Notes under the pieces: model-generated | Told to the model about the DNA's origin: nothing | Seen by the model: the letters and a program-made list of their open reading frames with translations, nothing else | The model's database searches: none | Origin: Candidatus Tayloriibacteriota bacterium | GTDB taxonomy: Bacteria > Patescibacteriota > Minisyncoccia > Phycocordibacterales > PALSA-1337 | Direction: 5' to 3' | DNA length: 64,000 nucleotides | Assembly (NCBI GenBank): GCA_037129895.1 | Contig: JBAXUB010000006.1 | Span: 3,580-67,579, forward strand | In this document: in pieces, positions 37,537 through 64,000 of the stretch | How positions within the stretch are numbered: position 1 is the first letter of the stretch | Layout: each line of letters begins with the position of its first letter | Program-made: the position numbers and the translations under genes

Positions 37537-37565
37537 AGCTAGAATGATAGCGCAAAATCGGAAAG

Positions 37566-39234: not shown

Positions 39235-40501
39235 TCTCTCTGCTAAATCGTCTCGCTGTTAATCTGTTGAGGCCCACTCCACCTAGCTTTTCTGATTCGT
39301 CCAACAATTTCAACAGTTCTTTATCAGATATATCTGCCCTAATTCTCTTACCTATGAACTTATCCAGTTTTCTAACCTGAGACAATGAGACCTTGCCACG
39401 ATACTGATCCAATAGATGTTTTCGTATTATGGAAACTTCATCGTTTACTTGTTTCGTCTCATGAGCACGCTCAGTAGTAACTATCTTCTCTACCTTTTCT
39501 ATCTCATCGGATGCTTCAAATATCGTGTTAGCAATTCTCTTTGCCTTTTGTGAATATAGTCCTGCGCCAATTTTTTCATCATCCAATATCTTTACTAATT
39601 CCTGTTTTGTAATCTTCTTGGAAATATAATCCTCAATAGATATTTCTATCTTCTGTTCAGTATCTATGTCATAAGGCATGAGCAATGTTCGCATAAGCAA
39701 TTTAGCATGAATTCTCAACCTAGAAAGATCTGGATTATTGGCCGCTAATTTATCAAATTCAGACTGCTCACCATCTTTACCAGTAAGAGTGCGTCCTTTG
39801 TTGGTGTTAACTACAACCCTTTCCAAAACACCATCCTTCAGATAAAAGACTCGATCAGCATAATGTGTATCGTTGGCATTATGTGTAACCTGGATAACAG
39901 TCTTCTTGTCTTCTCTGTTTATCTGTGCCAATAATTCCAACACGATAAATGAATTCTTCGAATCAAGGTTTCCGACGGGCTCGTCTGCAAGTATGATTTC
40001 TGGATCATTCATGAGTGCTCTGGCTATAGCAGTTCTCTGTTGCTGACCCCCAGACATCATTGATGGCTTATTGTCTGCATAAGGGGTAATTCCAAATTTA
40101 TCCATCAATAATTTGGCTCTCTTTTCCCTTTCATCGACTGGGACTCCGGAAAACATTTTTGATAGCATCATATTATCCTTGGCTGATAGATGCGGCACGA
40201 GATAGAAAGCCTGGAAAACCATACCTATAGTGTCTCGATAGAAATTTATGAGATCATTTGGTTTTATGACTTTGAGATTGTTACCACCCACTACCACTTC
40301 CCCTAGTGTGGGACTTTCCAAACCAGCAATAGTGTACAATAATGTTGATTTTCCGCATCCCGATGGTCCGAAAAAAACTATATACTCACCTTCGTATATC
40401 TCAAGGTTGATATCCTTTATAGCCGTGAACTCATTGGTCTTGCCGACATCATATCGAACGGTGACATTTTTCAATTGAATTATCGGCTTCATTTGTGGCA
40501 T
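39212..40501 (-). CDS. ABC transporter ATP-binding protein (MacB/LolD-like) with ~200-aa C-terminal repeat extension
   Basis: Walker A GPSGCGKST, signature MSGGQQQRTAIARAL, Walker B ILADEP, H-loop QVTHN. The extension carries three ~35-aa repeats (ITKQELVKILDDEKIG / ISDKELLKLLDESEKLGG / VSLSQVRKLDKFIGKRI). Confidence 0.85.
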   Translation of the reverse strand: MPQMKPIIQLKNVTVRYDVGKTNEFTAIKDINLEIYEGEYIVFFGPSGCGKSTLLYTIAGLESPTLGEVVVGGNNLKVIKPNDLINFYRDTIGMVFQAFYLVPHLSAKDNMMLSKMFSGVPVDEREKRAKLLMDKFGITPYADNKPSMMSGGQQQRTAIARALMNDPEIILADEPVGNLDSKNSFIVLELLAQINREDKKTVIQVTHNANDTHYADRVFYLKDGVLERVVVNTNKGRTLTGKDGEQSEFDKLAANNPDLSRLRIHAKLLMRTLLMPYDIDTEQKIEISIEDYISKKITKQELVKILDDEKIGAGLYSQKAKRIANTIFEASDEIEKVEKIVTTERAHETKQVNDEVSIIRKHLLDQYRGKVSLSQVRKLDKFIGKRIRADISDKELLKLLDESEKLGGVGLNRLTARRFSREIELVISK

Positions 40502-40567
40502 TATAACATTATTAAAGTATTAATATTTATGTAATTCTCTCAATATCTAATTATGCCAACGCCAATC

Positions 40568-46500: not shown

Positions 46501-46975
46501 TAAGTTGAATACTCGTAGCTGCAGCTGTTCCAGTAGTCTCTGTAGATGAGAAAACTTTACCGGTAAGATTAAAACCAGTTGAAGTCGTCCCATCGTCGGT
46601 CATAATATTTGTCGTTGTTGATGAAGCTATCTGTAAATCTGCTCCAGCATTAACGGCTAGTGTTGCTGCATCTTTTGCAGAATATTTAGTCCAGTTTGAT
46701 TGATTGGATGTATGATTGGGGTATGTTCCACCATCTAGTCCGCCGGACCATGTTGCTTGTGACCATGTATATGTGGCAGCTAGAGAAGTTTGATAGTCAA
46801 AATATATACTAGATCCTACAATAGATAATAGAAGTAAGAGTGCAATACCCCTTCTACCTACGATAAAATACGCCAAGTACACACATTTTCCGAGGAAATT
46901 TAACTCGTCAGTCTTCAGGACTTTTCTTATACTGTAAAAACGTTTGCGTCGCCGACGTTGTGTAAGCATTTGCAT
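40568..46975 (-). CDS. giant cell-surface protein (2135 aa): N-terminal anchor, beta-propeller-like region, multiple FN3-like repeats
   Basis: N-terminal Arg-rich segment plus a TM/signal anchor. Kelch/propeller-like repeats (...NTWT.L...P). At least 8 FN3/purple-acid-phosphatase-N-like modules of the form (SATITWTTD.QSNSQVEWG...T..H.V.L..L...T.Y.Y.V). It is co-oriented with the ABC transporter genes and has a shared terminator. Confidence 0.7.
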   Translation of the reverse strand: MQMLTQRRRRKRFYSIRKVLKTDELNFLGKCVYLAYFIVGRRGIALLLLLSIVGSSIYFDYQTSLAATYTWSQATWSGGLDGGTYPNHTSNQSNWTKYSAKDAATLAVNAGADLQIASSTTTNIMTDDGTTSTGFNLTGKVFSSTETTGTAAATSIQLTSSISNVGTWTTLTSSPVNISMGSSLHKYNNELYVLSGGNGTTFYKFTIADNTWTALATIPTTNFLGSRSFIDITTGKIYLRAGASLLVYTISSNTWTWLADAVNSLQSNPTDVLLHVDGEDYIYESNDQMYKYQISTNVWTLLTPPTDGWIKAYGNGIRGPGENYIYRPTIGNLARYSISGNSWSNMSPVSLGKSGRMIRNGTDDTIYMLLGGDTQSLKKYSIASNTWTPLTNVPEIFPAPGGNDMYGSIMFRDGSADEIYASPGNSSTGFYRYSITGNSWTTLTSLPTGLGAGSQIEVVSDSNGTRLYILQGDTSPGFGGKAFYRFNATSRVYASSGTYTSGVIDAGKSVANWGTLSWTKTGAQTVSIKARSSNSSSMAGATAYASCSNITSGAALSTGSCVTNGHRYVQYQATLSTSDTAVTPTLNDVTITYSTYATSTTLTSSSYNTSSSANLLSGISWSQATTSSSSIKFQIRTAPDNAGVPGTWSNFIGPTGATTTYYTNLNGTEAAPAAQTDGVNDQWVQYKAYLISDGASTPTLNSATLTYVVNASPGFDPNYPTTGAGGVGAVQNSDGTITINYSIRDPDTDTGTTMPGYLRPSFYYSLDGGSSYTLISTTSTMQASSYSDKAVSTTTYRTFTATSTIINQLTGQYAANAKIKVIVDDREAANNTASSTSAAFVLDTKTPSLGALPISIDASQSPALITLSATDDTALVMKVGKTADLSDVPNYYAYANSTTTSSVISGDTIYAVFKDAKNNSSSIVSVTPPIPTASNFFQDISNPNTLEWREFYAWAVSPVPPQGFRRYNVYRSVNGGGFSLLTTITNRMLNYIVDSGLSESSTYSYKVSIEDNDGNISLFSPASTADRPDGTGGSDIALPSLSTVTIGTTTTSGAYISWITNKYANSIIYYVASTTYPGTDKSAYSASVGVPSMLTSHTVILDRLIPDTQYYFLVESQDASNNSGQSSSASYTFRTEIGPRISNVTTAEIFDTEAAITWNTSTNADSSVWYSSSTDMSNSVEIIGSGSRSTNHRIKLTNLVKGTRYYYYVKSVDADGNVATDMNVVNGTINYYTLNTSEDTSKPIISGVETALISDSDATITWTTDKQSNSQVEWGIMKDPTASTSKTTGLSTDHYVTLSNLQKNTQYFYRVLSEDKSGNVGIGDNTGEMYTFTTNGILFDNVATSSITTTGATITWNTNTVSDSTVFYEAVTSYPGTNKTNYTKSVGVSNMTTSHSVVLSNLTPGTQYYFLVTSEDSQAQINQQAAETYTFITNPGPSISQILTSDTQDTEATVTWHTNLASDSSVYYSTNSNLTSPEVVTSVATTTSHSITLTGLVKGTNYYYYVKSIDEEGNVATDKNVVDGVINYYVVNTTRDIVPPVISDVKTPIIGESSATITWTTDEQSNSQVEWGIAKDLGIRENEPDMFKTQHSMSITGLVSSTTYYFVVRSRDRSENIAIDDRAGEKYSFTTLAPTVVYVTKTEYVGGGGGGALDNRDLTVPVISNVVVDSIGGNSATISFKSSKIATGKVKYGKTTSYGSETKRTGVYGLTHQISLNNLTPLTTYHFKAYVTDIYDNVGEGVDTTFTTLANGVVSQDIPIDVDTSSMTAEETSAYNKALSASASIIKAMLFGLIKNSNLSNISESQLASSLSALASKAVASPVISGTDIQVESSANTATIRWVTDKASNSLVGYSKASDYKNDSSYSISAGFPDEKTSDHEVILQNLAPSTTYHYQVRSQSLVGTASLSSDRTFTTTSLVPDISNIKFEKILESEATLTWKTDLPTKSQIEIKDNSTGKITKVDDPSFVKEHTYTANNLNYSTGYTFTVNAIDNDGNTSNPSIIPFSTTVSTEAPKISNVRITSSIIPDRIETTQSIISWKSDKPATSRVLFAQGTSDNLDQSTPTETNLVRDHIIVTTLLKPGTIYKIVVESGDAAGNATKSEPYTVLTQKPKGSVVDLIFKNLDTTFGFMKGE
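42261..43235 (-). repeat. near-identical ~80-bp in-frame direct repeats (at ~42258-42340 and ~43149-43230; 891 bp = 297 codons) inside the FN3 giant gene
   Basis: ttattccccattcaacctgagaattggattgtt(c/t)atctgtagtccaggtgatcgt... occurs twice and corresponds to duplicated FN3-pair modules (EWGI.KD...). Confidence 0.7.
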
Positions 46976-51371: not shown

Positions 51372-52517
51372 CTAATCGAATGTGATTCTCGTATTGGGTG
51401 CAGACTCACGTTGGAGAGAACGTTCATGTCTCTTGAATAGCCAACTCTTTCCACTTGTTGAGTAGAACGGCATGACTGAATTGGTACGGATGACATTGCT
51501 ATTATCCGTCCAAACGACTTGGTCACAATCACTGTTGCCGTCTGCAACGTACATACTACGAAGTGTGCACGTGGATTTGGCTGTTGAATAGCCAACGGTG
51601 ATCTTGGCCGTGGCACTAGTACGAGAAATCGTGTTCGGGTCTAGTATAGCCGTACCACCATCTCGGTAAGTGATATTCAGTGTTTTGGTAGCCGTTCGAA
51701 AGTCTGCTATGGATATGTCGGCGTGAGGACGATTCTCGATTTCAGCAGGACCGATGAGAACCGAATTACCAAAACATATACTCTCAAAGTTAACTGGCGG
51801 AAATGGAATCCATCGCAAGTAGCCGTCAGTATATATGACACCGTAGATCGGGAATTTCGTCGTGCCTGGTATGTTACCCCCAAATTCGATGAATGTGATA
51901 TTCGTCTGAATCGTGATGCCGTCTTTCTTGAAGGTCATGCCTAGCGGTCTCCAAAACTCTTCTAGTCTAGTTATGATGACGTAGATCGTACCAACATCAT
52001 AAACATTTTGTTTCAAGAATGGGCCTTGATAGACATCCAAGATCGGTGCGAAATTCGGACAACCAGTCCAGTTTTCATTGCAAACATTGTTGTTCACAAC
52101 GTAATCAGTTGGATGTGTCGAGGTGATGTATATATGTGCCGCATTTGTCCTGAAGACAATATTTAGATTGTCATGTTCAGGACAGTTGTCTGGGATAGAG
52201 TTGTTCATGGTGACCCAATTGGTCGGGTACATGGCAGCTCGAATGTATTCCATGTTGCCGTCTGTTCCTTCATTCCAGTATTGATGGGCATTGGCATTGT
52301 TCGTGTGGTAGAAATACGATCGTACAGGAGACCAGTTCAGGAAGTCCTGCGATGATTCGAATCTGTAATACACGTTAGTCTGGCCGTTGATCTGGATCTG
52401 GTGATCGTACCGGTCATTGTTAATTTTCAGTGTCGGCCGCGATGTGGCGGCAGTCACAGAAACATTGAATACGAGGCTAATCAAAGCCATGAATACGATA
52501 TTTTTGCTATTTTTCAT
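51372..52517 (-). CDS. secreted hypothetical protein
   Basis: Signal peptide (MKNSKNIVFMALISLVFNVSVTAAT). 381 aa, Cys-containing, beta-rich. No recognised family. Confidence 0.45.
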   Translation of the reverse strand: MKNSKNIVFMALISLVFNVSVTAATSRPTLKINNDRYDHQIQINGQTNVYYRFESSQDFLNWSPVRSYFYHTNNANAHQYWNEGTDGNMEYIRAAMYPTNWVTMNNSIPDNCPEHDNLNIVFRTNAAHIYITSTHPTDYVVNNNVCNENWTGCPNFAPILDVYQGPFLKQNVYDVGTIYVIITRLEEFWRPLGMTFKKDGITIQTNITFIEFGGNIPGTTKFPIYGVIYTDGYLRWIPFPPVNFESICFGNSVLIGPAEIENRPHADISIADFRTATKTLNITYRDGGTAILDPNTISRTSATAKITVGYSTAKSTCTLRSMYVADGNSDCDQVVWTDNSNVIRTNSVMPFYSTSGKSWLFKRHERSLQRESAPNTRITFD

Positions 52518-53068: not shown

Positions 53069-53099
53069 TGTAGATGTAGAGGTCTGACCTCTACAGATC
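53069..53099. repeat. REP copy overlapping the stop codon of the cohesin-like gene
   Basis: tgtagatGTAGAGGTCTGACCTCTACagatc. The TGA stop of the 53098-54297 gene lies at its 3' edge. Confidence 0.8.
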
Positions 53100-54297
53100 A
53101 GATCTTCTTTATATCATTGATTCCCTTCTCGATCTTCTTCTCGATAGACGTGAGCTCTGCATCGAGATCTTTCTTTGTACCCTCTTCTCGCTTCTTTGCA
53201 CCAGATATTGATCCTGACTTTATCAGATATTTCACGTAGCTATTCAAACCGGTCTTCAAAGTATCAAAGCCCTTATGTAATGTCTCTTTGGCCTCTTTCA
53301 CTTCTTTGAACTTCTTGTGTCGTAAACGTAGGTACATAGACAAGATGATGAATAGAGCGATGATTAGTAGGATCGATAAAATCGTCAGTAGTAGAACTAT
53401 TACCTTCAATGATATAGACGTTCCGCCAATATTCAGAGTCGATCCATTGACTACTTCTACATATGATATCTGTGATGACGGACCCATAGTACCGTTAGGC
53501 AAGATATTGATTGCCCATATCTTGTAATAACCGGAGCGTACAGAATATTTGAATGTGTAAGCGAAACTTCCATCAGGATTAACAGTTATCTGTGTAATGT
53601 CTGGATTGTATTTACCTTTTTGAATATAAACTTGCATCGATACATTCGGCATACTATTACCAGTAAATGATAACGTGTCACCTTCATTCAATGTATCCGG
53701 AATATTCGACAATATAGGTGCTGTAGGAATCAGGTTTGCCGATGAGGCTAGTTTCGTAGTTGTAGCCAGGGCGTCCGTCGCGGGTACGATTTCCTCTACT
53801 GGCACTGATGCCGCTTCTCCGATATTTACTGATAAAGCCTTTGATACAGATAACACATCAGTACCTAGTCCATCATTTGCAAGAACTGAACCATTTTGCA
53901 GGGTGACCATCGTCTGACCTGGTTTCTTGGCTCTGAATGTGACACTCACGATAGCTCCGTTAGCACCGTTCCAACCTGGTGAAGGTCGTCCTCCAGAAAG
54001 GTGCAGGTTACCTGATGAGTTCGAATACTTCGGCTCCTCAGCCCAGATGGAAAATATTGATTGAGAATATCCAACACTTTGAATAGATAATAGACTCGTG
54101 TCGTACTTCATATCTAGAGAAGCGGCATTGACCGCCATGCTCTCTGAGTCTAGGTCGATCGTAACTGTGAATGTTTGGCCAGCTCGTACTGACTCACTCT
54201 CTGGCACCATATATAGTATCGCGGCATTCGTAAAACATGGGAATGCGAAAATAGATATTGCAGTAACTATCGGGAATAGAAAATAGTTCTTTTTCAT
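53098..54297 (-). CDS. membrane-anchored cohesin-like surface protein 1
   Basis: Signal peptide; a ~130-aa domain (GQTFTVTIDLDSESMAVNAASLDMKYDTSLLSIQSV...FSIW...LHLSGGRP.G...GAIVSVTF) fitting the cohesin beta-sandwich pattern; an Ig-like segment; a TM helix; and an ~80-aa basic coiled-coil cytoplasmic tail. Confidence 0.55.
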   Translation of the reverse strand: MKKNYFLFPIVTAISIFAFPCFTNAAILYMVPESESVRAGQTFTVTIDLDSESMAVNAASLDMKYDTSLLSIQSVGYSQSIFSIWAEEPKYSNSSGNLHLSGGRPSPGWNGANGAIVSVTFRAKKPGQTMVTLQNGSVLANDGLGTDVLSVSKALSVNIGEAASVPVEEIVPATDALATTTKLASSANLIPTAPILSNIPDTLNEGDTLSFTGNSMPNVSMQVYIQKGKYNPDITQITVNPDGSFAYTFKYSVRSGYYKIWAINILPNGTMGPSSQISYVEVVNGSTLNIGGTSISLKVIVLLLTILSILLIIALFIILSMYLRLRHKKFKEVKEAKETLHKGFDTLKTGLNSYVKYLIKSGSISGAKKREEGTKKDLDAELTSIEKKIEKGINDIKKI

Positions 54298-55277
54298 TGG
54301 ATGCTTTTTATGCTGGTCTGATTATACCACCTTATGACTCGTGGAAAAATGATGATGAATAGAATAACGACTATGATCAGAAGCAAATATGCTGACACTC
54401 CAATATTAAATGGCTTAATTATTGATTCTTCCCTCACATTACCTGATGCATCGAAGGCTCTAACCTCGATCGTACTTATCCATTTCTGATAATAGAGAAT
54501 TTGCGGGCTTTGGGCTTGTGTCCAGAGTTTACTGACACCAAGAATGGAAATAATCCACGGACGTTCCTCGATCTCATATCTCGTGACACCAGATCCTTTG
54601 TCTACTGCAAAGAACGATACGAAGTAGTCGTTGTCAGTCACAGTCGGATCACTACCAAGTGATATGTCGAATGGTTCTGGCGAAGTAGTATCGTCACTCG
54701 GTTTATAGACGATTTTGGTGGCTCTATCATCATTACCGACTGACAATCTGAGTTTGGTAATTGTGACATTGGATAATGCTGTTCCTCTTCCATCATTAAT
54801 ATATGCATTGAAATTGTCCACACTGAGTGATTGATCGCCATGCTTGAGGGCGGTCAAGACAAATGAAAGAATATTCCCACTAGAACCAGAATATCCCCCA
54901 GGAAGTCCGCCAGAGAATCTGATCTCAGACGATGTAGATGATCTGTGAATGTTCTCTAGACTAGGCCGATCGATCCAAAGCGATATGAACGAACCCCCTA
55001 TTTCAATATTCGATACCTCAAATGCTTGCGTTGGTATGAGGATAGATCCGCCCATCGAATTGATCTGTTTACCTTTTGCGTCTAGGTTTAGAGAAACTAT
55101 GAAACTGTCACCAACGTTGTACTTTGATTGCGCCGTTTTCATCGTTACAGTCTGTGCTGACGTTGTCGATGGTAGATTGAATAGAATATAAGATACAGAA
55201 AATACGGCGACCAAAACAAATCTCTGCAAATGATTCTCTCTGTGCCATATGTCCACTATTTCGTTAATATTTATCAT
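54294..55277 (-). CDS. membrane-anchored cohesin-like surface protein 2 (paralogue of 53098-54297)
   Basis: Same architecture as the neighbouring gene and alignable to it (GDSFIVSLNLDAKGKQINSMGGSILIPTQAFEVSNIEIG..FISLW...IRFSGGLPGG..GSSGNILSF). TM helix and short tail. Its start overlaps the stop of the neighbouring gene. Confidence 0.55.
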   Translation of the reverse strand: MININEIVDIWHRENHLQRFVLVAVFSVSYILFNLPSTTSAQTVTMKTAQSKYNVGDSFIVSLNLDAKGKQINSMGGSILIPTQAFEVSNIEIGGSFISLWIDRPSLENIHRSSTSSEIRFSGGLPGGYSGSSGNILSFVLTALKHGDQSLSVDNFNAYINDGRGTALSNVTITKLRLSVGNDDRATKIVYKPSDDTTSPEPFDISLGSDPTVTDNDYFVSFFAVDKGSGVTRYEIEERPWIISILGVSKLWTQAQSPQILYYQKWISTIEVRAFDASGNVREESIIKPFNIGVSAYLLLIIVVILFIIIFPRVIRWYNQTSIKSIQ

Positions 55278-55300
55278 AAGTATTGTCGATGAATGAACTA

Positions 55301-56674
55301 TTACCTAGTTCCAGTCCACCAGTACATCATTATAGAAAAATCTTGGAGGTTGACTCGACCGTCACCATTCAGGTCTGCACAGGGATTTGTTGGTTTAGTG
55401 TTACCCCAGAAGTACATCAGGATTGAAAAGTCAGTAATATTCACTTTGCCATCATTATTGATGTCGGCATGTGCACTACAAGCCGTAGCTTTCGGTGCAG
55501 TATTCAGGACATCTTTGTCGCCGACTTGAAAACCAAGTAATGATGAAAATGCCGAAGCAATATTCTTGTTGGCTATAGTCTGTGACTTCGTCGTATGTTC
55601 ACCTTTTTCTAGTAATGAAGAATTCAATGTATATATCCAACGGCCATATTTATCTGCTATTGTTTGATCGAGGATTTCCTTTTCTGAATTGATCATGATA
55701 TTTACTGAAGATATCGGGTATGAATATCCAAAGAACTTGATCGTGTTACCAATCTTGACGACGGATTTGTCAGAGGTGATAGTCGGTGCAACGATGATGT
55801 CCGATGTTGTGACAGATTGACCAGCGATTGCGTTAACTGTAAAACCAAAAGTCGGTGATTTGTAGTTGTCCTTGTCCAGGGCATATATTCCGAATGAGTA
55901 AATTCCAGAGGATACTGGGAATTCAGCCGCAAAATCACCGTTACTATCAGCTATGACCTGCTTTCCTATCGAGGCATCTTTCAGTATCACGATCTTGGCT
56001 CCAGGGTAAGCCAGACCTTTCAAAGAAATCTTTGTACTTGCTGCAGGACTAGGACTTCCGGCTCCACCTCCTCCTCCGCTACTGCCACCGCCTGTTGGAG
56101 GTGTCGGTGGTACTACCGGTGGTGTTACTGGTGTAGTAGCTACTGGTGTTGCAGATACTTCAGTCGAAGAAGCCACCACCATACCGAATGCATCTTGAGC
56201 TTGAATTATAAAAAAATATGGCTGACTGTTTGTAAGTGAGCTTCTCGTAGCACTGGTAACATTACCTACAGAAGTGAATGTATATGGTCCGCCAGAAGTA
56301 TTGGATTGACCGACGAGGTATCCACCAATATTGAATCCGAGGAATCCTTCTGAAGCTGTCCAACTAAGATCGACTTTCGCGTCTCCTGCTGATGCGGTGA
56401 CGACCGGTGTTGTGACTTTAGGAAAATATAGGAATCCAGAGTTCAACATGAATGTTGTCGCAGTCGAAGAACCGATAGCTATCTGTGACATACTGCCAGT
56501 CAAGCCAAAACTAGCTGATGTCATCTCCCTCACGCTGTTAAATGAAGAGTCGATAACTTTGTAGCTCGCTGAGCCAGGGTCAGTAGCGTTTACTATCAAA
56601 ATCGGCAAAACCAGTGCTACTGTCAGCAAAGAAAATCGTAATAATGTCGTTTTTGCATATTTACTCATAGTCAT
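55301..56674 (-). CDS. secreted multidomain protein with C-terminal type-I dockerin
   Basis: Signal peptide, FN3-like domain, PT/G-rich linker (PPTPPTGGGSSGGGGGAGSP), Ig-like domain. The C-terminal duplicated 22-residue calcium-binding segments DINNDGKVNITDFSILMYFWGN and DLNGDGRVNLQDFSIMMYWWTG are joined by an 8-residue linker, which is the canonical dockerin architecture. Confidence 0.72.
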   Translation of the reverse strand: MTMSKYAKTTLLRFSLLTVALVLPILIVNATDPGSASYKVIDSSFNSVREMTSASFGLTGSMSQIAIGSSTATTFMLNSGFLYFPKVTTPVVTASAGDAKVDLSWTASEGFLGFNIGGYLVGQSNTSGGPYTFTSVGNVTSATRSSLTNSQPYFFIIQAQDAFGMVVASSTEVSATPVATTPVTPPVVPPTPPTGGGSSGGGGGAGSPSPAASTKISLKGLAYPGAKIVILKDASIGKQVIADSNGDFAAEFPVSSGIYSFGIYALDKDNYKSPTFGFTVNAIAGQSVTTSDIIVAPTITSDKSVVKIGNTIKFFGYSYPISSVNIMINSEKEILDQTIADKYGRWIYTLNSSLLEKGEHTTKSQTIANKNIASAFSSLLGFQVGDKDVLNTAPKATACSAHADINNDGKVNITDFSILMYFWGNTKPTNPCADLNGDGRVNLQDFSIMMYWWTGTR

Positions 56675-59600
56675 ATTACAGGCGCTGGTTCTTCAGTTGC
56701 GGGTGGTGGAACTGGTGTAGCTGGTGGCTCTACAGCTGGCGGTGCAGTAACAGGCGTTGATTCTGATGGTGTTTCTGCCGGCGATATTACTGGTGGTTCA
56801 GTTGATGCAGTCGATGTGGCTGGTGGTTCAGCCTGAAGTGGCGGTTCTATTATAGGAGTAGTTGTAGCGGATTCGATTGAAATAGGTGTCGAGGTGGCGT
56901 GAGGTACTATTTCTGGTAGTGTAACTTGGACAGTGGAAGAAGCTATAATCTCTGGTGTTGATGTCGCCGTCGTAGACCCTGTAGTTGTCGGTGTTGTAGA
57001 TGAGGTCGGTTCAATAACAGTTTGTGGAATGACCGGACTAACTGAATTTGCTACCATCATCTTCTTCAAGGCTTCCTCGTCTATACATGTTGATCCGAGA
57101 CAAATGGTTTTTGAATTTACCAATTCAACGTCAGCTTGTTTGGCAGTAATCTTGTTCAATATCCAATTACCCGTTGACTCGATAGCCTTCTCAATAGCTG
57201 ATACGAGTTGACTGATGAATGTCGGAGACGTTACGATGGCCGTCACAGTGGAGCTGGCAGTTTTTGAAGCGGATGCAGCGGTGATTTCCTCCATAGTAGA
57301 AGTACTAAATATATCCTTAACAACGTTCATTGCAGACAACTCCTTTACAGAGTTAACCAATGCCGCCAAGATCGGCCGGTCTGACAATGTCAGCATGCCA
57401 GATGAGTCCACACCGACGGCCTCTGGGATACTCGCTTGAACATTTTGTGCGGAGAAGCCAGCATAAGTCGTCAACGTGTCGTATCCCGTCACATCTTTCC
57501 ATTTATATAAGATAGGATTCAATGTCAAAACATCTGAAAGACCTCGATTGAAATTACCCTGAATATTCTTCAACCTCTCATCTGATGAGACTGTGATGTT
57601 ACCTGATGCATCCGAGACGAGGGTACCAGTAGTGAACGTATCATTTCGCATGGTGCCACTGACGTGAAGTTTGGCGGTTGGAGATATCGTGCCTATGCCG
57701 ACGTTGCCAGATACGGATAGATTAGAAGCAAAGTTATATTCATTGATTGTATATTGTGTGCCGGCGTCCGTAATGGTTGCACTGCTAGGCTGAAGAGTTG
57801 TAGCTGGACCCGAAGTCCAAGTACCTGTATGGCGAATTTCAGATGATATACCGCAGATCCAGCTCGTTGCGAACCGAACCCAGACAGAAAATGTTTGATT
57901 CGTTACACCTGATCCGCTTGTATTGACGACTACAACATTGTCCACGAACCTTATTCCACTACTACCATTGTATGTATCTAGACCAACAATCATCGATTCG
58001 ATACCACTTGCAGTGTTACGCCCCTGCACGTTGATATGTTGTCTGGTTGGAATACCCAAACTACTAGCGGCATATAGGTCCACATCCAGTGTGGACCCAA
58101 TCCAAGCCCCGTTGTTGACAAATGTACCGATCTTCATCCAGTGACCACCATCTGTTCCACACTCATTGCTCGTACCAAATACTCCACCGTATATATAGCG
58201 CATGCCAATAGAGTTAAGTGCAGACATTGTCCCTCTGACATCGAGATTGTATCCAGGAAGAGTTGTTCCTATACCAATGGAGCCATTTTCTTTGATGTAT
58301 AAAGCACTATTTTGAGTAGCAGAACCGTTAGTTACGGAGAATGAAAGAGCACCTTTAGGAGCACCATTGGTATGATCAACGAATACACCAGTAATTGCTG
58401 ATGAAATATTACCCCCAGCAGATCTAAATTCATATGCGCCAAAGTTACCGTTTGTTGGATTATCCTGTTGAATATCGAGAGTAACTGCTTTCCATGCCGA
58501 TGATAAAGTCGTGTTGGTTGTCGATCCGGAAAATATAGACGACACTGCACTATCAGCGGCTCCACCAGTCAGTGGAGTATATGCATGGATTCTTACTCCA
58601 GCATACATTGAGTTGTAGATATCCAAGATAGAGATAGGATTCTCCGTCCCAATCCCCACATTTCCGTTATCTAACACTGTGACTTTAGGTGCATTTGTAG
58701 AGTCTGCAATCTGAAATGCTCGACCTGTAGCGATACCTGTACCCGTTACTGAAAGTTTAGCTGACGGAGACGTTGACCCTATCCCGACGTTGCCAGCGTT
58801 TATTACTAAACTAGCTCCCGCCAATGTTGATGCGCTTGAAATGGTACCGCCCAATCCGACGTTTCCACCGCTCTGCAGAACCATCCTCAATGGCTCGCCT
58901 CCGGCAGCTTGACCACCGTAAATCTCAAATTGCCCACCTGTTCCATCGTAGACACTTCGAATTGTACCGAGTGGTAAATAACTTCCCGATGGATAACCAA
59001 AGAAAGAAAAAGAACCCAAAACATCATTAGTTGAAATATTGGTAGGTGAAGCGACTGTTCCTCGAGCACGATAAAAGCCTACTGTCGGTCTGTCACTGGC
59101 AGTTCCATCTGCAAAATTGATTTTTAACCCATCACCGTATCCCAAAGCCGCACCGCTGTTAGATGCAATATTTAGAATAGTTCCGGGATTCTCCGTCCCA
59201 ATCCCCACATTCCCATTTGCAGCTATTGTGAACATTCTAGCGTTCGAGGAGGAGGAAACAGTAAAAGCATTTGCTGATCCTGCCGTTCCATATATATCAA
59301 GTTTGGCGCTCGGAGTTGTGGTGCCGATACCAACGTTACCAGAACTCGTAATTCTCATTTTTTCTGTTAGAGTAGTAGAAGCACTAGCGCCTGTATTAGT
59401 TAAAAAAGTCAATATTCCACTATAACCAGCACCAGAATACAATTGCTCTATTCTAGATGGCTCCCAGTTATCTGACTCCCTCTTAAAACTAAAATAGGAT
59501 CCGAGTCCTGCTGTTGTACCAATCGTAGGTTCTAATCTTAAATTTCCTTTAACATAAAGTTTTTCAGTAGGATTCATTGTACCAATCCCGACGTTGCCAT

Positions 59601-62600
59601 TCGCCAATACCGTAAACACCGAAGAAGTCGCAAATCCCGCCGAAGTTGTTGAAGCGATACTGAATAGTGGCAGAGTTGATCCGGGGGCTTGTTGTATTGA
59701 GAGTCTAGCAAAAGCTGTAGAAGTACCGAGTGAAGCATTACCAGATGCAGAAATATTGAATACATCTCCAGCGACGCCACCGTTGGATGTTACGTTCAAA
59801 TAATTGGCTGTCTGGGACAATATACCATTTAGACTTAGGATTGATCTTGCAGCAAAGCGTGTACCCAACATTAGTTGAGCGTTGAGAGCAAGATCTGTAC
59901 CTATACTAGCTGCGTCATTGACGAACATATCAGTATAATATGTGTCAGAGATTTGGAATTCTGTTTCAAACCAATATCTATAACCAGCATCCAATGTTCC
60001 TGACATACCCATTACTTTATAGTACCTATATGCTGTAGTGTTCTGACTAAGGGTTGTTATTATATACGTACCACCATTCGTACAACTTCCATCGTTTAAT
60101 TGTGTTGTAGTTCCTATGTTCGTCCAATTTGAGTTATCATTACTTCCTTGCCATTGCCATAATCCTTCGGGACATGTAAAACTCCAGTATGTTTTTGCTG
60201 AATCTATTATTTTCTTTGAGCCAAAATCAAAAGTGATAGATTGTGAACCGTCCAATACCACACCTCCAGTTAGAGTGATACCCGTTGAATTTGTACTACC
60301 ATCTACAAGAGTGGGTATTGTGTACTGATGCCATGAACTACCAGTTTCAGACATAGATATGATACTAGTTCTATTTCCAGTACTATATATATTCGTATAT
60401 GTCGTTGTGGCTGTACTGCTTCCGATATGGAGACGAGCTATAGGGGCGTTCTGTTGTATTCCCGTTAACTTAGCAGCCGTCACGACCATTGCGTCACCAA
60501 GACTTGTACTTGCTGTATTGATACTTAGTAGATTAGCCGATTGCCCAATAGCACCCGTTATACTCATCGTCGTCTGTAGTGGAACTAGGGAGTTTAGTGT
60601 AATGGAACCAAACCCAGCATTACCCGTAGCTGATAGACTACCGACGATAGATGTGTTCCCCGTTACTGATAGTGCGTCATTTCCGTTTGATATCTTGAAC
60701 TCGATTTCTTCCCATCTTCGTCCGTTTGCATCAAGTGTTCCAGAGACACTCACAAGTTTATAATAGCGATACCCAATAGAGTTCGTACTGAGAGTTATCA
60801 TAATATACTCACCTGTTCCACCTACCCCTGAAGATAGTTGAGATGTCCCACCAATATTAGTCCATGTTGAATTATCATTTGAACCTTGCCATTGCCAGAT
60901 ACCCTCTGATTCTCCAAAGTTAAATGTATTCTTTGCAGCAGTTACAATTTTTGGTGACCCAAAATCAAATGTTACAAATTGAGAACCGTTTAAAGTCGTT
61001 CCACCTGCAAGTTGAATTGCGTTTGTATTGTTGTTTGCAAGAACTCCATCTATAATACTATTCAATGTGTAGAAGTGCCATGTTCCACCACCCTCTGATG
61101 TACCAACATAGGTTCTTCTATCACCTGTTCCACCGCTATTACTATAGGACGGCGTTTGATTATCTACAGCAATCAATGCAGCTGATGTAGTAGTACCAAC
61201 ACCAGTAAGTCCGCTATCTAGAATAGTAAACTTTGCTGCATAAGTGCTATCTGTAACTTGAAAGGCCTTTCCTGTTGTGATGCCAGAACCTGAGACTGTA
61301 AGCCTAGCTAGGGGACTTGTCGTCCCAATACCGACGTTGCCGCTATCTAGAATAGTAAACTTTGCTACACCATCACTGTCTGTTGTCTGAAAAGTAGCCC
61401 CTGTTGTTGTACCAGAACCATTAACTGACAATTTAGCTGCTGGTGTAGCGTATGGGCCAATTCCGACATTTCCATTAGATTTGAGAATAGAAAAGCGTAA
61501 AGTCCCACTAAGAGAAGTGAAGTCATTTGGAGAAGTGTAATAACGTAAATTACCACCACTTTGAACTCCAAGGGCGGCATGCGCAGCCACTTGATTTTCA
61601 ATAAAAGTAATAAATCCAGAGGTGTTTATCGCTGGCCTAAGTGTCAATGATCCAGTTGCGCCTCCACCAGCACCAAGCCCTGCACCAAGAGCTGCTGTAG
61701 AAAGAGCTCCTCCGACAGTTAGATTGTTCCCTACCACAAAACTGTCAGGCGTTTTTAATCCGATTGCATCAGCATATAAAGCTGCATTTACTACTCCTGA
61801 GTTATAAAAATTTATTCTCGGTACACCACCACTACTAGGTAGAAACTCTATGTAGTCACCAGTTGCATCGTTTATTTGCATTGGTCCAAGAATGCTCAGT
61901 GTTTTTCCAGATATAAAACTATTAGTCCCTATTGCAGTACTTCCAGCCAAATATGTCTGTCCAGAAACTGATAGGTTTGTTGTAGAAGCATTACCTAGTG
62001 AAGATTGACCGGTAACTGATAGCGTTCCTGTGGCTGTAATGTTTGCAGCTGTTAGGTTGCCTGAGAAGTAGCCGTCTCCTACTACGGTGAGCTTGGATGA
62101 TGGGGTTGTGGAGCCGATACCGACGTTGCCGCTCGTATCAACTGTCAGTCGCCTCGTAATAGTTGAAGCCCCATCCCAAGTATAAATACCAAAATTATCT
62201 GTACCATTAGGCATCCCAAAACCCCATTGCGGAGTAGAGGCAGTTACAGCCGTAGCACTTTGTATTAGAAAGGCGGCATCGTGCGTATTATTATTCCTCA
62301 TAACCCTTGCCCAAGAGTTTCCAATAGAGTTCCAACCAATATCCAAAGGTACACCCGGACTCGTCGTCCCAATTCCCACATTCCCTCCATTGTAGTAAAC
62401 ACTGGAACTATTCGTCGTCCACTGACTAGATACTTTGTTGTTCCAGTCTGTGGTAGATGCAGATAGAGGGATGATATAGCTAGGATTGAGTGAGAGTACT
62501 CCAGTAGATGTAGCATACTGTAGACCTGTAGCTGTAGTAGACAGGGCGTTTCTGGAACGTACGTCTGTATAGTAGAGGTTAGTACCTTCTGCTAGAGCTG

Positions 62601-64000
62601 AGGTGGTGGTGCCAGCTAAGTCTGTAGCGAATAGTGAAGTTGAGTAGAATCTATTGATAACTCCTTGTATGAGATTGTCTGTGTTGATGGCGAGGGATGA
62701 GGTGGAAAGTGCGGAGACTGCACCGTTGGTGCCGAAGAGGAGACCTGAGAGTGAACCTACAGAGAGACCGCCAGTGGTTGTGGTGCCTGTGACTGATAGC
62801 GTTCCTGTGGCTGTAATGTTTGCAGCTGTTAGGTTGCCTGAGAAGTAGCCGTCTCCTACTACGGTGAGCTTGGAACTAGGAGATGAGGAACCGATGCCAA
62901 CTGATCCTTGAACAATTAAACCATTTGATGGTGCAGTATATGTACCAGCATAACTTGATCCGATAGCAGCTGAACCACCTACATCAAGACTATTTAAGAT
63001 TGACGCTACATTTACCCCTAGTCCATTCGGTACTGTAGTAGAAGCTCCACCTGTATCATACGGATAGCCTAATGGCGAAAAGGGCGCTGTCCACCTTGCA
63101 ATACCCTTAGAAACACGAAGCTCATCAACATATCCTTGATAGTAAAATGGTGTTGAATAATTAAGTTTTCCAATCGTCACATCATTCGTATTATTCATTA
63201 GTGACTCAACGCTAGTCCAGTGGTATATTTCGACTCCGTTCTTATATGTATAAAAGTCATTACCACTTCTTGTAACTGCCATATGTTGCCAAGTATTGAG
63301 AGTTACATCTCCCATTCTAATCCTATTACCGATATCCCATGAAACTCCATTTGAACTTGCTAAGAACTCCCACTTACCACTCTTTATTGTAATTCTGAAT
63401 GGTCCAAGAGAAGAAGCAGCAGATTTACTGATCACGTCTCCATCTTCATTGGTTGCTGTTGGGTATGCCCAGAAATCAATTGTGAAGTCTCCTGATCCAA
63501 ATTGAAAATCTAAACTGTTGGCGGCGCTCAGATAATCTCCCGTTCCATCAAAGTATGCTGCCTTACTTCCAAAATAATACTGAGTTGTGCTCTGTGTCAC
63601 GTCTCCACTAGGAGTTAAAGTACGTCCACTCGATGACGTATCAATAAACGTGTTTCCAGATCCTTCTGCAGGCATTAAGAGTTTAGTATAAGAGTCGTTT
63701 CCACCATATCCAGGCATGGCAGACGTACCAGCCCCTGAAACTATCAATGAACCAATAAACTGAGAGGTGCTTGTAGCACTACCTGTAAAAGTAGCACCGA
63801 CTATATTAGTAGCGTATAGGTCTCCAATGACAGTTAATTTATACGGAGGAGTAGAAGTCCCAATCCCCACATTCCCTCCATTGTAGTAAACACTAGTACC
63901 ATTCGTCGTCCACTGACTAGATACCTTGTTGTTCCAGTCTGTGGTAGATGCAGATAGAGGGATGATATAGCTAGGATTGAGTGAGAGTACTCCAGTAGAT
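56671..64000 (-). CDS. giant tail-fibre-like repeat protein (>2440 aa; 5' end beyond window) with C-terminal intramolecular-chaperone autoproteolysis domain and Pro/Thr-rich tail
   Basis: More than 10 copies of G-N-V-G-I-G-T-x-x-P-x-x-K-L-x-V. The track start at 63870 is GTG inside a repeat (the upstream in-frame sequence reads ...GGNVGIGTST). Region 63871-64000 duplicates 62366-62509 in frame, so the ORF very likely continues past the window. The C-terminal SDERLKNIQGNF...LNPILYKWKD...GFSAQNVQASIPEAV...LTLSDRPILAALVNSVKEL matches the Peptidase_S74 / CIMCD consensus. The final ~170 aa are a P/T/S-rich tail. Confidence 0.75.
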   Translation of the reverse strand, partial: STGVLSLNPSYIIPLSASTTDWNNKVSSQWTTNGTSVYYNGGNVGIGTSTPPYKLTVIGDLYATNIVGATFTGSATSTSQFIGSLIVSGAGTSAMPGYGGNDSYTKLLMPAEGSGNTFIDTSSSGRTLTPSGDVTQSTTQYYFGSKAAYFDGTGDYLSAANSLDFQFGSGDFTIDFWAYPTATNEDGDVISKSAASSLGPFRITIKSGKWEFLASSNGVSWDIGNRIRMGDVTLNTWQHMAVTRSGNDFYTYKNGVEIYHWTSVESLMNNTNDVTIGKLNYSTPFYYQGYVDELRVSKGIARWTAPFSPLGYPYDTGGASTTVPNGLGVNVASILNSLDVGGSAAIGSSYAGTYTAPSNGLIVQGSVGIGSSSPSSKLTVVGDGYFSGNLTAANITATGTLSVTGTTTTGGLSVGSLSGLLFGTNGAVSALSTSSLAINTDNLIQGVINRFYSTSLFATDLAGTTTSALAEGTNLYYTDVRSRNALSTTATGLQYATSTGVLSLNPSYIIPLSASTTDWNNKVSSQWTTNSSSVYYNGGNVGIGTTSPGVPLDIGWNSIGNSWARVMRNNNTHDAAFLIQSATAVTASTPQWGFGMPNGTDNFGIYTWDGASTITRRLTVDTSGNVGIGSTTPSSKLTVVGDGYFSGNLTAANITATGTLSVTGQSSLGNASTTNLSVSGQTYLAGSTAIGTNSFISGKTLSILGPMQINDATGDYIEFLPSSGGVPRINFYNSGVVNAALYADAIGLKTPDSFVVGNNLTVGGALSTAALGAGLGAGGGATGSLTLRPAINTSGFITFIENQVAAHAALGVQSGGNLRYYTSPNDFTSLSGTLRFSILKSNGNVGIGPYATPAAKLSVNGSGTTTGATFQTTDSDGVAKFTILDSGNVGIGTTSPLARLTVSGSGITTGKAFQVTDSTYAAKFTILDSGLTGVGTTTSAALIAVDNQTPSYSNSGGTGDRRTYVGTSEGGGTWHFYTLNSIIDGVLANNNTNAIQLAGGTTLNGSQFVTFDFGSPKIVTAAKNTFNFGESEGIWQWQGSNDNSTWTNIGGTSQLSSGVGGTGEYIMITLSTNSIGYRYYKLVSVSGTLDANGRRWEEIEFKISNGNDALSVTGNTSIVGSLSATGNAGFGSITLNSLVPLQTTMSITGAIGQSANLLSINTASTSLGDAMVVTAAKLTGIQQNAPIARLHIGSSTATTTYTNIYSTGNRTSIISMSETGSSWHQYTIPTLVDGSTNSTGITLTGGVVLDGSQSITFDFGSKKIIDSAKTYWSFTCPEGLWQWQGSNDNSNWTNIGTTTQLNDGSCTNGGTYIITTLSQNTTAYRYYKVMGMSGTLDAGYRYWFETEFQISDTYYTDMFVNDAASIGTDLALNAQLMLGTRFAARSILSLNGILSQTANYLNVTSNGGVAGDVFNISASGNASLGTSTAFARLSIQQAPGSTLPLFSIASTTSAGFATSSVFTVLANGNVGIGTMNPTEKLYVKGNLRLEPTIGTTAGLGSYFSFKRESDNWEPSRIEQLYSGAGYSGILTFLTNTGASASTTLTEKMRITSSGNVGIGTTTPSAKLDIYGTAGSANAFTVSSSSNARMFTIAANGNVGIGTENPGTILNIASNSGAALGYGDGLKINFADGTASDRPTVGFYRARGTVASPTNISTNDVLGSFSFFGYPSGSYLPLGTIRSVYDGTGGQFEIYGGQAAGGEPLRMVLQSGGNVGLGGTISSASTLAGASLVINAGNVGIGSTSPSAKLSVTGTGIATGRAFQIADSTNAPKVTVLDNGNVGIGTENPISILDIYNSMYAGVRIHAYTPLTGGAADSAVSSIFSGSTTNTTLSSAWKAVTLDIQQDNPTNGNFGAYEFRSAGGNISSAITGVFVDHTNGAPKGALSFSVTNGSATQNSALYIKENGSIGIGTTLPGYNLDVRGTMSALNSIGMRYIYGGVFGTSNECGTDGGHWMKIGTFVNNGAWIGSTLDVDLYAASSLGIPTRQHINVQGRNTASGIESMIVGLDTYNGSSGIRFVDNVVVVNTSGSGVTNQTFSVWVRFATSWICGISSEIRHTGTWTSGPATTLQPSSATITDAGTQYTINEYNFASNLSVSGNVGIGTISPTAKLHVSGTMRNDTFTTGTLVSDASGNITVSSDERLKNIQGNFNRGLSDVLTLNPILYKWKDVTGYDTLTTYAGFSAQNVQASIPEAVGVDSSGMLTLSDRPILAALVNSVKELSAMNVVKDIFSTSTMEEITAASASKTASSTVTAIVTSPTFISQLVSAIEKAIESTGNWILNKITAKQADVELVNSKTICLGSTCIDEEALKKMMVANSVSPVIPQTVIEPTSSTTPTTTGSTTATSTPEIIASSTVQVTLPEIVPHATSTPISIESATTTPIIEPPLQAEPPATSTASTEPPVISPAETPSESTPVTAPPAVEPPATPVPPPATEEPAPVI
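62015..62877 (-). repeat. perfect 86-bp in-frame direct repeat pair (62015-62100 and 62792-62877; 777-bp = 259-codon period) inside the giant gene
   Basis: actgatagcgttcctgtggctgtaatgtttgcagctgttaggttgcctgagaagtagccgtctcctactacggtgagcttgga occurs twice identically. Confidence 0.8.

Follow-up and report, generated by a model that had tools for sequence, protein, structure and literature searches.

A secreted dockerin protein and two membrane-anchored cohesin proteins encoded beside a giant fibre-like gene in Candidatus Taylorbacteria

Gene order and domain content of the locus

The window analysed here, a 64-kb stretch (64,000 nucleotides) of a Candidatus Taylorbacteria MAG, contains four ORFs on the minus strand, designated giant, doc, cohB and cohA, all present as described in the first-pass annotation, whose guess of a small-genome, possibly episymbiotic bacterium is compatible with the MAG assignment. 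ATGA overlaps were found at the giant/doc and cohB/cohA junctions, while doc and cohB are separated by 23 nt, so that the overlapping stop/start codons originally proposed for the operon occur at two of the three junctions and not at every one. The rest of the window codes for housekeeping functions (aminoacyl-tRNA synthetases, PBPs, MurG, DnaB, RecR, YchF). No phage structural or replication gene was found among the scanned window ORFs, no S-layer-type domain was detected among the scanned proteins, and no WxLIP-like gene occurs within the 64 kb. The features of the locus are the following:

56671..64000, minus strand: giant fibre-like gene, 3' part (>2,442 aa; reading frame 56671-63999 still open where the window stops)
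63106..63549, minus strand: Laminin_G_3 (concanavalin-like lectin) domain, giant residues 151-298 (Pfam E 2.9e-17)
60052..60309, minus strand: F5_F8_type_C_2, NedA-like galactose-binding domain, giant residues 1231-1316 (Pfam E 3e-6)
57415..57585, minus strand: Peptidase_S74 intramolecular-chaperone domain of giant (Pfam E 1.2e-7)
56674..57012, minus strand: Pro/Thr/Glu-rich C-terminal tail of giant, its end overlapping doc at ATGA
55301..56674, minus strand: doc, secreted stalk protein (457 aa)
56411..56590, minus strand: conserved N-terminal motif, doc residues about 29-88 (alignment with 42 homologues)
56150..56401, minus strand: FN3 domain, doc residues about 92-175 (AF2 strands; Foldseek)
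55520..56032, minus strand: two Ig-like domains, doc residues about 215-385 (AF2 pLDDT above 85)
55310..55471, minus strand: tandem dockerin, doc residues 402-455 (two EF-hand-like loop-helix segments)
54294..55277, minus strand: cohB, type-I membrane protein (327 aa)
53098..54297, minus strand: cohA, type-I membrane protein (399 aa)
53101..53325, minus strand: Lys/Glu-rich cytoplasmic tail, cohA residues 325-399 (75 aa; 25-locus tail comparison)

The giant protein contains 13 GNVGIGT...KLxV repeats, and a diverged second copy of its F5_F8_type_C_2 domain lies about 740 nt away (direct repeat D5). The S-D-E-R-L-K motif of the Peptidase_S74 domain begins at residue 2139; this stretch showed 39-41% identity with phage distal tail-fibre proteins (T4-like), the likeness being restricted to about 95 residues, and had a weak match in the PDB (8jov). 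Scores for Peptidase_S74, as well as for Dockerin_1 and Cohesin in the smaller proteins, were all above the Pfam cut-offs. About 250 residues follow the S74 domain, including the Pro/Thr-rich tail, and similar tails also end the upstream giant proteins of three related loci (L021, L061 and L070); the complete giant protein of L021 has no obvious signal peptide. The 5' end of the gene, which the first-pass annotation hoped to reach by extending the contig, is missing from the window and from the two other assemblies carrying giant, which also break inside it. These breaks are explained by a repeat, the last letters of the window (63848-64000) matching 62357-62509 at 94%.

The doc protein starts with a hydrophobic stretch and is organised as signal peptide, conserved N-terminal motif, FN3, Gly linker, two Ig-like domains and dockerin. 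The N-terminal motif, made of three S-x-x-F/Y strands with GFLYFP at the end, is kept in 42 homologues and limited to dockerin carriers; it had a pLDDT below 50 in the AlphaFold (AF2) model and matched nothing in Pfam or the PDB. Foldseek matches of the doc model included FN3 tandems, and PF00041, Big_6 and Big_13 are precomputed on doc homologues. No catalytic or CBM domain was found in doc by Pfam, the AF2 model or Foldseek. Dockerin_1 was assigned at residues 403-449 (Pfam E 8.7e-12, above the curated cut-off), and the sequence, DINNDGKVNITDFSILMYFWGN - TKPTNPCA - DLNGDGRVNLQDFSIMMYWWTG, reads as 22 + 8 + 22, exactly the two 22-residue segments and 8-residue linker noticed initially, with two helices in the AF2 model. 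Part of the family departs from the canonical dockerin loops, either carrying Cys at loop position 6 or lacking the first Asp of loop 2. No second dockerin is present in the window.

In cohA, a hydrophobic N-terminal stretch taken as signal peptide is followed by the cohesin (residues 33-143; Pfam E 1.5e-8, above cut-off), an Ig-like segment (about 204-261; a weak Pfam match to Big_13 was obtained in this protein), a TM helix (300-324) and the cytoplasmic tail, which carries the family-wide motifs EAExxLHxxFDxLK and KEIxDIEK (25 loci). On the contrary, cohB had no match in Pfam. It aligns with the cohA cohesin domain at 26% identity (E 6e-14), which indicates at the sequence level that the two are paralogues. 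In the AF2 model (pLDDT 90.9) cohB is organised as signal peptide, cohesin (42-181), FN3-like domain (205-288, including a DKGSG motif), TM helix and a tail of about 13 aa; its N-terminal segment is under the hydropathy threshold, yet forms a helix in the model. The best PDB matches retrieved by Foldseek were almost all solved cohesins, the first being 2w1n (E 1.4e-9), with a TM-score of about 0.7 for 6kgf and 2xdh (0.72 for the latter); judging from the model, the N-terminal domain of cohB is a cohesin fold. The two folds on which the first-pass reading depended were assigned by profiles and structure model together: Pfam recognised doc and cohA as anticipated, and cohB was assigned through its model. 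A C-terminal TM helix, predicted in both cohA and cohB, was found in 71/75 cohA homologues (median tail 84 aa in these 71), in 72/82 for cohB and in 1/83 for doc.

Conservation of the triad and variability of its neighbours

What is conserved is a triad, the dockerin carrier followed by CohB and then CohA, and not the four genes initially proposed; the order of the triad is kept in relatives and the giant gene varies. A dockerin-ending gene lies directly upstream of cohB in all 18 cohB-anchored genome loci where upstream DNA exists and, reciprocally, doc is followed by cohB and then cohA in all 53 doc-anchored metagenome loci whose downstream sequence extends for 2.5 kb or more. Across related loci totalling about 1.1 Mb, where ORFs were called mechanically and cohA or cohB labels assigned by best phmmer matches, 96 of 102 dockerin ORFs have a cohesin gene immediately 3', the remaining six being at contig ends, and no orphan dockerin was found.

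The triad is widespread in Patescibacteria. The cohB profile retrieved 2,817 clusters (50% identity) at E ≤ 1e-30, and the source names include Taylor-, Giovannoni-, Zambryski-, Wildermuth-, Yanofsky-, Magasanik-, Yonath-, Jorgensen- and Pacebacteria and from CPR3, with doc at 35-67% identity across candidate phyla. Dockerin carriers span 280 to 970 aa while the cohesin pair stays, and MG2-domain proteins serve as carriers in two loci (L014, L018).

The upstream gene is far less constant. A giant-family or ≥800-aa ORF was found within 6 kb on the same strand in 25/50 loci; S74-fibre relatives are upstream in seven (L022, confirmed with Pfam, L023, L026, L028, L033, L056 and L067), and a tailspike-like (pectate-lyase-like) lyase in L072. 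The giant S74 fibre is thus a recurrent yet variable neighbour. Loci without a giant gene carry instead WxLIP/DUF916-like, small TM protein, beta-lactamase-like or two-component genes. The WxLIP/DUF916-like (WxLIP_PGBD-like) gene, coding for a TM-anchored protein, precedes the triad in 29 related loci; no Pfam or NCBIfam match to a WxL family was obtained among the scanned proteins.

Relation to known cohesin, dockerin and fibre systems

In Clostridium thermocellum, the anchoring scaffoldins SdbA and OlpB bind the type II dockerin of CipA (PDB 2b59, 4fl4). The triad resembles this Firmicutes arrangement in the cohesin fold, in the duplicated calcium-loop/helix design of the dockerin and in the putative non-covalent binding of a dockerin-ending protein by a cell-bound cohesin. 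It differs in being anchored via a C-terminal TM helix instead of SLH domains or sortase, in having one cohesin per protein and one dedicated carrier, without enzymes or CBM, and in always pairing two paralogous cohesins, with a conserved cytoplasmic tail in cohA.

Cohesin and dockerin modules of Clostridium perfringens are on secreted enzymes and join them to one another. The triad shares with these glycoside hydrolase and toxin pairs (2w1n, 2vo8, 2jh2) the non-cellulosomal use and, in cohB, the cohesin-FN3 succession of GH84C, its best structural match (2w1n), but its modules are on membrane proteins without catalytic domains. With the archaeal cohesins and dockerins (Archaeoglobus fulgidus, 2xdh; ANME) the triad shares the occurrence in non-cellulolytic organisms and the lack of a large scaffoldin. 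In syntrophic ANME these modules have been proposed to take part in contact between cells, and the proteins are reported to vary in number and domain content (PMC9012536), whereas the triad has a fixed three-gene order, a fixed topology and one carrier.

The TM-anchored WxLIP_PGBD-like gene of the 29 loci recalls the WxL/Csc clusters (DUF916/WxLIP) of lactobacilli and enterococci, which form non-covalently assembled surface complexes in wall-bearing bacteria; in the triad, however, the interaction modules are cohesin and dockerin. Finally, giant shares the S74 domain and its S-D-x-R-x-K motif with phage tail fibres and endosialidases having a C-terminal S74 chaperone, but it lies in a chromosomal, non-phage context, exceeds 2,400 aa with lectin-like domains, and continues well beyond S74. 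The NCBI annotation of the MAG already bears the domain names, and no paper describing a cohesin-dockerin surface-anchor system of Patescibacteria was found in the literature; the novelty is confined to the system-level picture, which appears to be undescribed.

A putative non-covalent surface anchor

The triad, with its established domain identities, topology and near-absolute gene linkage, probably forms a non-covalent surface anchor. CohA and CohB would be held in the cytoplasmic membrane through their C-terminal helix, and doc, predicted to be Sec-secreted and to end in a calcium-binding tandem dockerin, may bind one or both co-encoded cohesins. Such binding would tether the stalk to the membrane non-covalently and, with the stalk tethered there, its conserved N-terminal part would project through the wall. 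In Firmicutes, scaffoldins are anchored by SLH domains or sortase, a task that would here fall to the triad, as a system dedicated to one carrier and not as a docking centre for numerous enzymes. The analogy with phage tail fibres suggests that giant trimerises and cuts off its C-terminal S74 chaperone, and in the source genome its translation is coupled to that of the triad through the ATGA overlap. Since relatives have other giant, fibre-like or tailspike-like genes at the same place, the most likely overall picture is a conserved anchor next to a fast-evolving adhesin. On balance we favour a membrane anchor dedicated to a single stalk protein, next to which lies an adhesin gene that varies. 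A physical link between fibre and triad is the weakest step of this explanation: the first-pass annotation saw in doc a secreted adaptor co-expressed with the fibre and in the system a candidate surface-appendage or host-attachment apparatus, and we regard a role as adaptor for the fibre and host attachment as candidate functions, the strong conservation of the triad sequences fitting a general envelope role equally well.

The same anchoring could serve housekeeping, the triad being an envelope element (for example a strut across the wall, or a foundation for an S-layer or fibril coat) without any specific relation to host recognition or giant. This explanation, possible although rather unlikely in our judgement, agrees with conservation across candidate phyla and thousands of clusters, with neighbours that vary and are not giant in half of the loci, and with the WxLIP/DUF916-like gene of the 29 loci, whose Pfam family name points to peptidoglycan binding; the recurrence of giant, fibre-like or tailspike-like genes on the same strand, the giant/doc overlap in the source genome and the failure to detect an S-layer-type domain argue against it.

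We regard as distinctly improbable that the three are independent surface proteins, linked by co-regulation only, with the dockerin not binding the co-encoded cohesins and acting instead as a calcium-, carbohydrate-, wall- or host-binding module. The non-canonical loops in part of the family would agree with this. In a mirror-tree comparison of dockerin and cohesin, no co-evolution signal beyond shared phylogeny was observed (partial r 0.09-0.16). Against it, adjacency is 100% wherever checkable from two independent anchors, the dockerin stays as its carrier changes, cohesin and dockerin are a classic partner pair, and binding has been reported for archaeal non-cellulosomal pairs (PMC9012536).

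A prophage or phage-derived tail-fibre cassette, suggested by the S74 domain and its likeness to distal tail fibres, is very hard to reconcile with the shortness of that likeness, with the housekeeping content of the window and with a search of 2.9 million viral contigs, in which only five weak matches turned up, all to the dockerin alone and none beside a cohesin gene. Equally remote is a cellulosome-like polysaccharide-degrading complex, given the single cohesin per protein without scaffoldin, a dockerin carrier without catalytic or CBM domain, the sole dockerin of the window and the loci free of orphan ones, and anchoring by TM helix instead of SLH domains or sortase, while the joint presence of cohesin and dockerin and the pectate-lyase-like gene upstream in one relative (L072) speak in its favour.

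The dockerin carrier and the two membrane cohesins

The first-pass annotation had proposed a single operon of four minus-strand genes, read as a cohesin receptor docking a dockerin adaptor beside a fibre, a candidate surface appendage or host-attachment apparatus. All four genes were located:

56671-63999, minus strand, open at the window end: giant, a fibre-like gene of more than 2,442 aa
55301-56674, minus strand: doc, the 457-aa stalk protein ending in a dockerin (the carrier)
54294-55277, minus strand: cohB, a 327-aa membrane cohesin
53098-54297, minus strand: cohA, a paralogous membrane cohesin of 399 aa

Giant and doc overlap by ATGA, as do cohB and cohA, and a 23-nt spacer separates doc from cohB. 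Two hairpins, both without a T tract, are found 3' of the cohA stop. Neither orf381 (51372-52517) nor orf99 could be retained as an operon member, both being conserved in none of the related loci; since orf381 also lies 580 nt from cohA, the operon ends at cohA.

A genome scan anchored on cohB (16-sequence alignment) retrieved 18 loci in genomes representing diverse Patescibacteria; each has a tandem-dockerin gene followed by cohB and cohA wherever the contig reaches, and some carry an extra short cohesin besides these two. With the dockerin carrier as a second, independent anchor, 80 metagenome loci were obtained, in which cohB and then cohA (labels assigned by best phmmer match) followed every carrier whose contig runs on for 2.5 kb or more downstream (53/53). 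Across all loci, with flanks of ±10 kb to which the dockerin census is confined (about 1.1 Mb), 102 ORFs, called mechanically as the longest ORF from the first start codon, bear the window's dockerin subtype; a cohesin gene comes directly after 96 of them and the other six are at contig ends, leaving no orphan dockerin in the loci and one dockerin in the 64-kb window. The search for the four-gene neighbourhood in relatives thus upheld the order doc, cohB, cohA, while the giant gene proved to be a variable neighbour. The conserved unit is the triad, in which the carrier varies and the cohesin pair is constant. Three TPA bins with the triad bear the database label Gammaproteobacteria.

The tandem dockerin was found exactly as first described, DINNDGKVNITDFSILMYFWGN and DLNGDGRVNLQDFSIMMYWWTG forming 22-residue loop-helix segments joined by an 8-residue linker, and doc scored above the curated Pfam threshold for Dockerin type I (Dockerin_1, PF00404; 45.5 bits, cut-off 22.9; E 8.7e-12; residues 403-449). 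Its loops, DINNDGKVNITD and DLNGDGRVNLQD, follow the pattern D-x-N/D-x-D-G-x-V-N/D-x-x-D, each being succeeded by DFSI(L/M)MY(F/W)W, and the helices were modelled at residues 411-419 and 441-449. Calcium-dependent folding and cohesin binding would be expected of this family. By the strict pattern both loops are canonical in 52 of 101 family members; the rest deviate, for instance with Cys at loop position 6 or without the first Asp of loop 2. In a large subgroup (L028, L029, L033, L036, L038, L046-L048, L053, L056 and others), the Cys at loop position 6 of segment 1 pairs with a Cys just upstream of it, the linker is longer and the first Asp of loop 2 is gone; the window dockerin, by contrast, has one Cys before segment 1 and another in the linker (NPC). 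This suggests clade-specific disulfide clasps in these dockerins.

The AlphaFold model of doc (pLDDT 80) starts with a signal helix and a low-confidence stretch; an FN3 domain follows, then a glycine linker, a pair of Ig-like domains and the two dockerin helices. Its PDB matches by Foldseek are FN3 tandems. Neither Pfam nor the model comparison revealed a catalytic or CBM domain in the carrier, whose hydrophobic segment is N-terminal only. Carriers are mostly 430-460 aa long, similar to the window protein; in a subgroup of 280-350 aa the N-terminal half is missing, and those of L010, L014 and L018 are larger, from 732 to more than 1,650 aa, L014 and L018 having MG2 domains. The low-confidence part of the window protein contains a distinct motif:

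56411-56590, minus strand: doc N-terminal motif (residues 29-88), three S-x-x-F/Y strands and a terminal GFLYFP

This segment is kept in 42/42 aligned homologues, yet AlphaFold gives disorder, thus suggesting that it folds on a partner or upon oligomerisation. It is confined to dockerin carriers, and no match to it was found in Pfam, NCBIfam or PDB.

The expectation that both membrane proteins would match the Pfam Cohesin family (PF00963) held for cohA (35.4 bits, cut-off 24.1; E 1.5e-8; residues 33-143) and not for cohB, which alone has no Pfam match, though its first domain is homologous to the cohA cohesin domain (26% identity, E 6e-14) and its model has a cohesin fold. Indeed, the cohB AlphaFold model (29 homologues, pLDDT 90.9), the one cohesin modelled, displays a signal helix, a beta-sandwich (42-181) with the flattened jelly-roll form of cohesins, a further beta domain (205-288) and a helix at the C-terminus. 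The top 35 PDB matches of this model by Foldseek are almost all cohesins, with probability 1.00 and target-normalised TM-scores of 0.65-0.73, headed by cohesin-FN3 of C. perfringens GH84C (2w1n, E 1.4e-9); matches to single cohesins, among them the non-cellulosomal one of A. fulgidus, have TM-scores of about 0.7. Sequence searches of the PDB, run with cohA and with the cohB profile, gave sub-threshold matches only. The cohB profile matched 8,454 representatives of 50%-identity clusters at E ≤ 1e-3 (2,817 at E ≤ 1e-30), most of them 280-340 aa long and aligned end to end.

A C-terminal TM helix was predicted in 71/75 cohA and 72/82 cohB proteins, with cytoplasmic tails of median 84 and 10 aa, respectively. 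The cohA tail has motifs common to the family:

53101-53325, minus strand: cohA cytoplasmic tail, with EAExxLHxxFDxLK and KEIxDIEK shared by homologues in L003-L100

No known Pfam domain was matched by this tail, and we know of no counterpart of it in cellulosomal cohesins. Elsewhere, a trypsin-like protease is fused to a cohA-type cohesin (P0387; 38% identity across the cohesin), and in a 4,269-aa protein (P0155) 31 stretches match the cohB profile, the best covering its second (FN3-like, DKGSG) domain.

The giant gene and its counterparts

Between 56671 and the end of the window the giant frame has 2,442 codons and no stop. The window's final 153 bases duplicate 62357-62509 (a 94% copy), and two other public assemblies carrying the operon also stop inside the gene, the 5' end being missing because internal repeats cause assembly breaks. 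Pfam identified Laminin_G_3, NedA-like galactose-binding and Peptidase_S74 domains (the latter at 32.3 bits against a cut-off of 22); the protein also has 13 GNVGIGT...KLxV repeats. The S74 domain, which starts with SSDERLK (residues 2138-2144), shares 39-41% identity with T4-like phage distal tail-fibre proteins, across about 95 residues only. The giant has the domain and the Ser...Lys motif near the C-terminus typical of the S74 tail-fibre/endosialidase class, outside the phage or prophage context of that class. By analogy with the family, it may self-cleave at the S74 motif.

A phmmer comparison of the window giant with the genes upstream of the triad in relatives showed no resemblance. With jackhmmer, which may drift on low-complexity tails, relatives of its repeat and S74 regions were detected upstream of the triad in L022, L023, L026, L028, L033, L056 and L067, all cut by contig ends and with the S74 domain of L022 confirmed by Pfam. 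A second giant family, whose members have in common a C-terminal domain and a tail that is acidic and Pro-rich, occurs in 19 loci, with complete genes in L021 (2,027 aa) and L078 (2,125+ aa), among others; a complete 2,425-aa giant upstream in L061 has a C-terminus of the same kind. Other upstream genes of ≥590 aa code for FG-GAP (L008), surface Ig-like (L004) and tailspike-like pectate-lyase/K1-lyase (L072) proteins. A giant-family or ≥800-aa ORF lies ≤6 kb upstream on the same strand in 25/50 loci with at least 3 kb of upstream sequence. The contig ends <1 kb upstream of the carrier in 33/97 cases, as expected if repeats often lie there.

Possible function and relation to known systems

Domains, topology and gene linkage are the observed part of the picture. 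From what is established for cohesin-dockerin pairs, one or both membrane cohesins would hold the stalk protein through its dockerin, with its FN3 domain and conserved N-terminal motif facing outward. Binding of the dockerin by these cohesins is putative and is supported by their genomic linkage (53/53 and 96/102); a mirror-tree comparison singled out neither cohesin as the dockerin's partner. The proposed anchor is conserved and the genes next to it (giant, lectin-bearing, fibre-like or tailspike-like) vary, a pattern that fits an attachment apparatus whose recognition element evolves fast; the contact between fibre and triad is putative. A general envelope role of the triad is a serious alternative to this host-attachment reading.

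Two paralogous cohesins are always found beside one internally symmetric dockerin. The usual cohesin:dockerin stoichiometry is 1:1. A further and improbable arrangement is a 1:1:1 CohA:Doc:CohB transmembrane clamp, in which CohA and CohB would each grip one of the two near-identical dockerin helices and the helical CohA tail would connect a partner in the cytoplasm with the stalk and, by way of the stalk's N-terminal motif, with a trimeric giant fibre. If true, it would constitute a Patescibacteria-specific mechanical or signalling link from host contact to the cell interior.

The triad would resemble the anchoring arm of a cellulosome in its working, whereas cellulosomes attach via SLH domains or sortase and the triad via C-terminal TM helices; indeed, neither SLH nor LPXTG was matched among the proteins scanned. 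A cellulosome proper was rejected, given one cohesin per protein, no scaffoldin, a carrier without enzyme or CBM, a single dockerin in the window and no orphan dockerins in the loci. As for a WxL/Csc cluster, in which a DUF916/WxLIP protein and WxL-domain proteins are encoded side by side, the window has no WxLIP-like ORF, and no WxL-family match (Pfam and NCBIfam) was obtained among the proteins scanned. A prophage was also rejected, in view of the housekeeping neighbours and the lack of phage genes among the window ORFs scanned, and the triad was not found in viral contigs. The C. perfringens Coh-FN3 module is the closest structural relative, and non-cellulosomal archaeal systems are the closest in spirit; a cell-contact role has been proposed for the cohesin/dockerin proteins of ANME (PMC9012536). 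The one Patescibacteria paper found to mention a dockerin (PMC10633639) deals with the essential protein SEML1_0315 of Southlakia epibionticum, which was rejected as the same system, standing alone without cohesin neighbours in the published gene table.

In the literature searched, which covers few subscription journals, cohesin/dockerin in Parcubacteria or CPR was found only in passing mentions, and the triad system is therefore only provisionally considered undescribed. The domain names are already in the NCBI annotation.

Patescibacteria contribute much of bacterial diversity, and those in culture live attached to other cells. To our knowledge, almost nothing is known of how they anchor surface proteins or deploy giant ones. 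A triad of fixed order and topology in thousands of sequence clusters offers a concrete, testable handle, with small soluble modules for expression and binding assays; it is a candidate anchor for variable giant adhesins and a marker for locating their genes in fragmented assemblies. It would exemplify cohesin-dockerin as a dedicated, membrane-anchored, single-client tether and not an enzyme scaffold.

Other genes in the window and around the triad

NCBI protein names identify the window source as a Candidatus Taylorbacteria MAG, and the ORFs scanned are mostly chromosomal (aminoacyl-tRNA synthetases, PBPs, MurG, MraW, DnaB, RecR, YchF, L9). Around the triad of related loci the following genes are found:

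L094 8664-9635, L003 7374-8312, L015 7422-8480: WxLIP/DUF916-like protein with a C-terminal TM anchor, upstream of the triad in 29 loci
L021 9611-9994, L004 7814-8215, L008 5949-6308: conserved ~130-aa protein with one N-terminal TM helix, directly upstream of the carrier in 25 loci
L009 3706-5919 (minus), L011 1-2412 (minus), L016 2147-4807 (minus), L018 3402-6062 (plus): large ORFs of 737-886 aa upstream of the triad
L015 14267-17785, L017 13572-17072, L019, L020: in one clade, after the triad, a lipoprotein, a ~520-aa membrane protein and a TrwB/VirD4-like coupling ATPase

The WxLIP_PGBD match in L094 has a Pfam E of 8.4e-7, and the WxLIP/DUF916-like gene is mainly found beside the short carrier form (280-350 aa). 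A beta-lactamase-like gene is upstream in 10 loci; none of the WxLIP-like, ~130-aa TM and beta-lactamase-like genes occurs in the window. The coupling ATPase (Pfam TrwB_AAD_bind, E 1.3e-9) hints that the triad of the L015/L017/L019/L020 clade is linked with a type IV secretion-like system.

Three further features were recorded in the window:

38011-46975, minus strand: second giant gene set, with a 2,135-aa protein bearing seven Pur_ac_phosph_N-type domains, several FN3 domains and Kelch motifs
34621-37572, minus strand: leucyl-tRNA synthetase, 983 aa, with an apparent alpha/beta-hydrolase-like insert at residues about 276-399
10305-12396, plus strand: tRNA-Glu(CUC), then a RhuM-family 'virulence protein' ~950 nt downstream (Pfam E 1e-111)

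After the 2,135-aa giant come a MacB-type ABC ATPase and an FtsX-like permease. The same set recurs in L015, L017 and L019, upstream of the triad at a distance of a few kb, with a giant2-like ORF in L088, which points to a looser, larger conserved neighbourhood around the triad. The insert of the leucyl-tRNA synthetase (Abhydrolase_1 and Ser_hydrolase, E about 3e-8) is located within the catalytic domain, before the editing domain, and the tRNA-Glu(CUC)/RhuM region may be a small mobile insertion.
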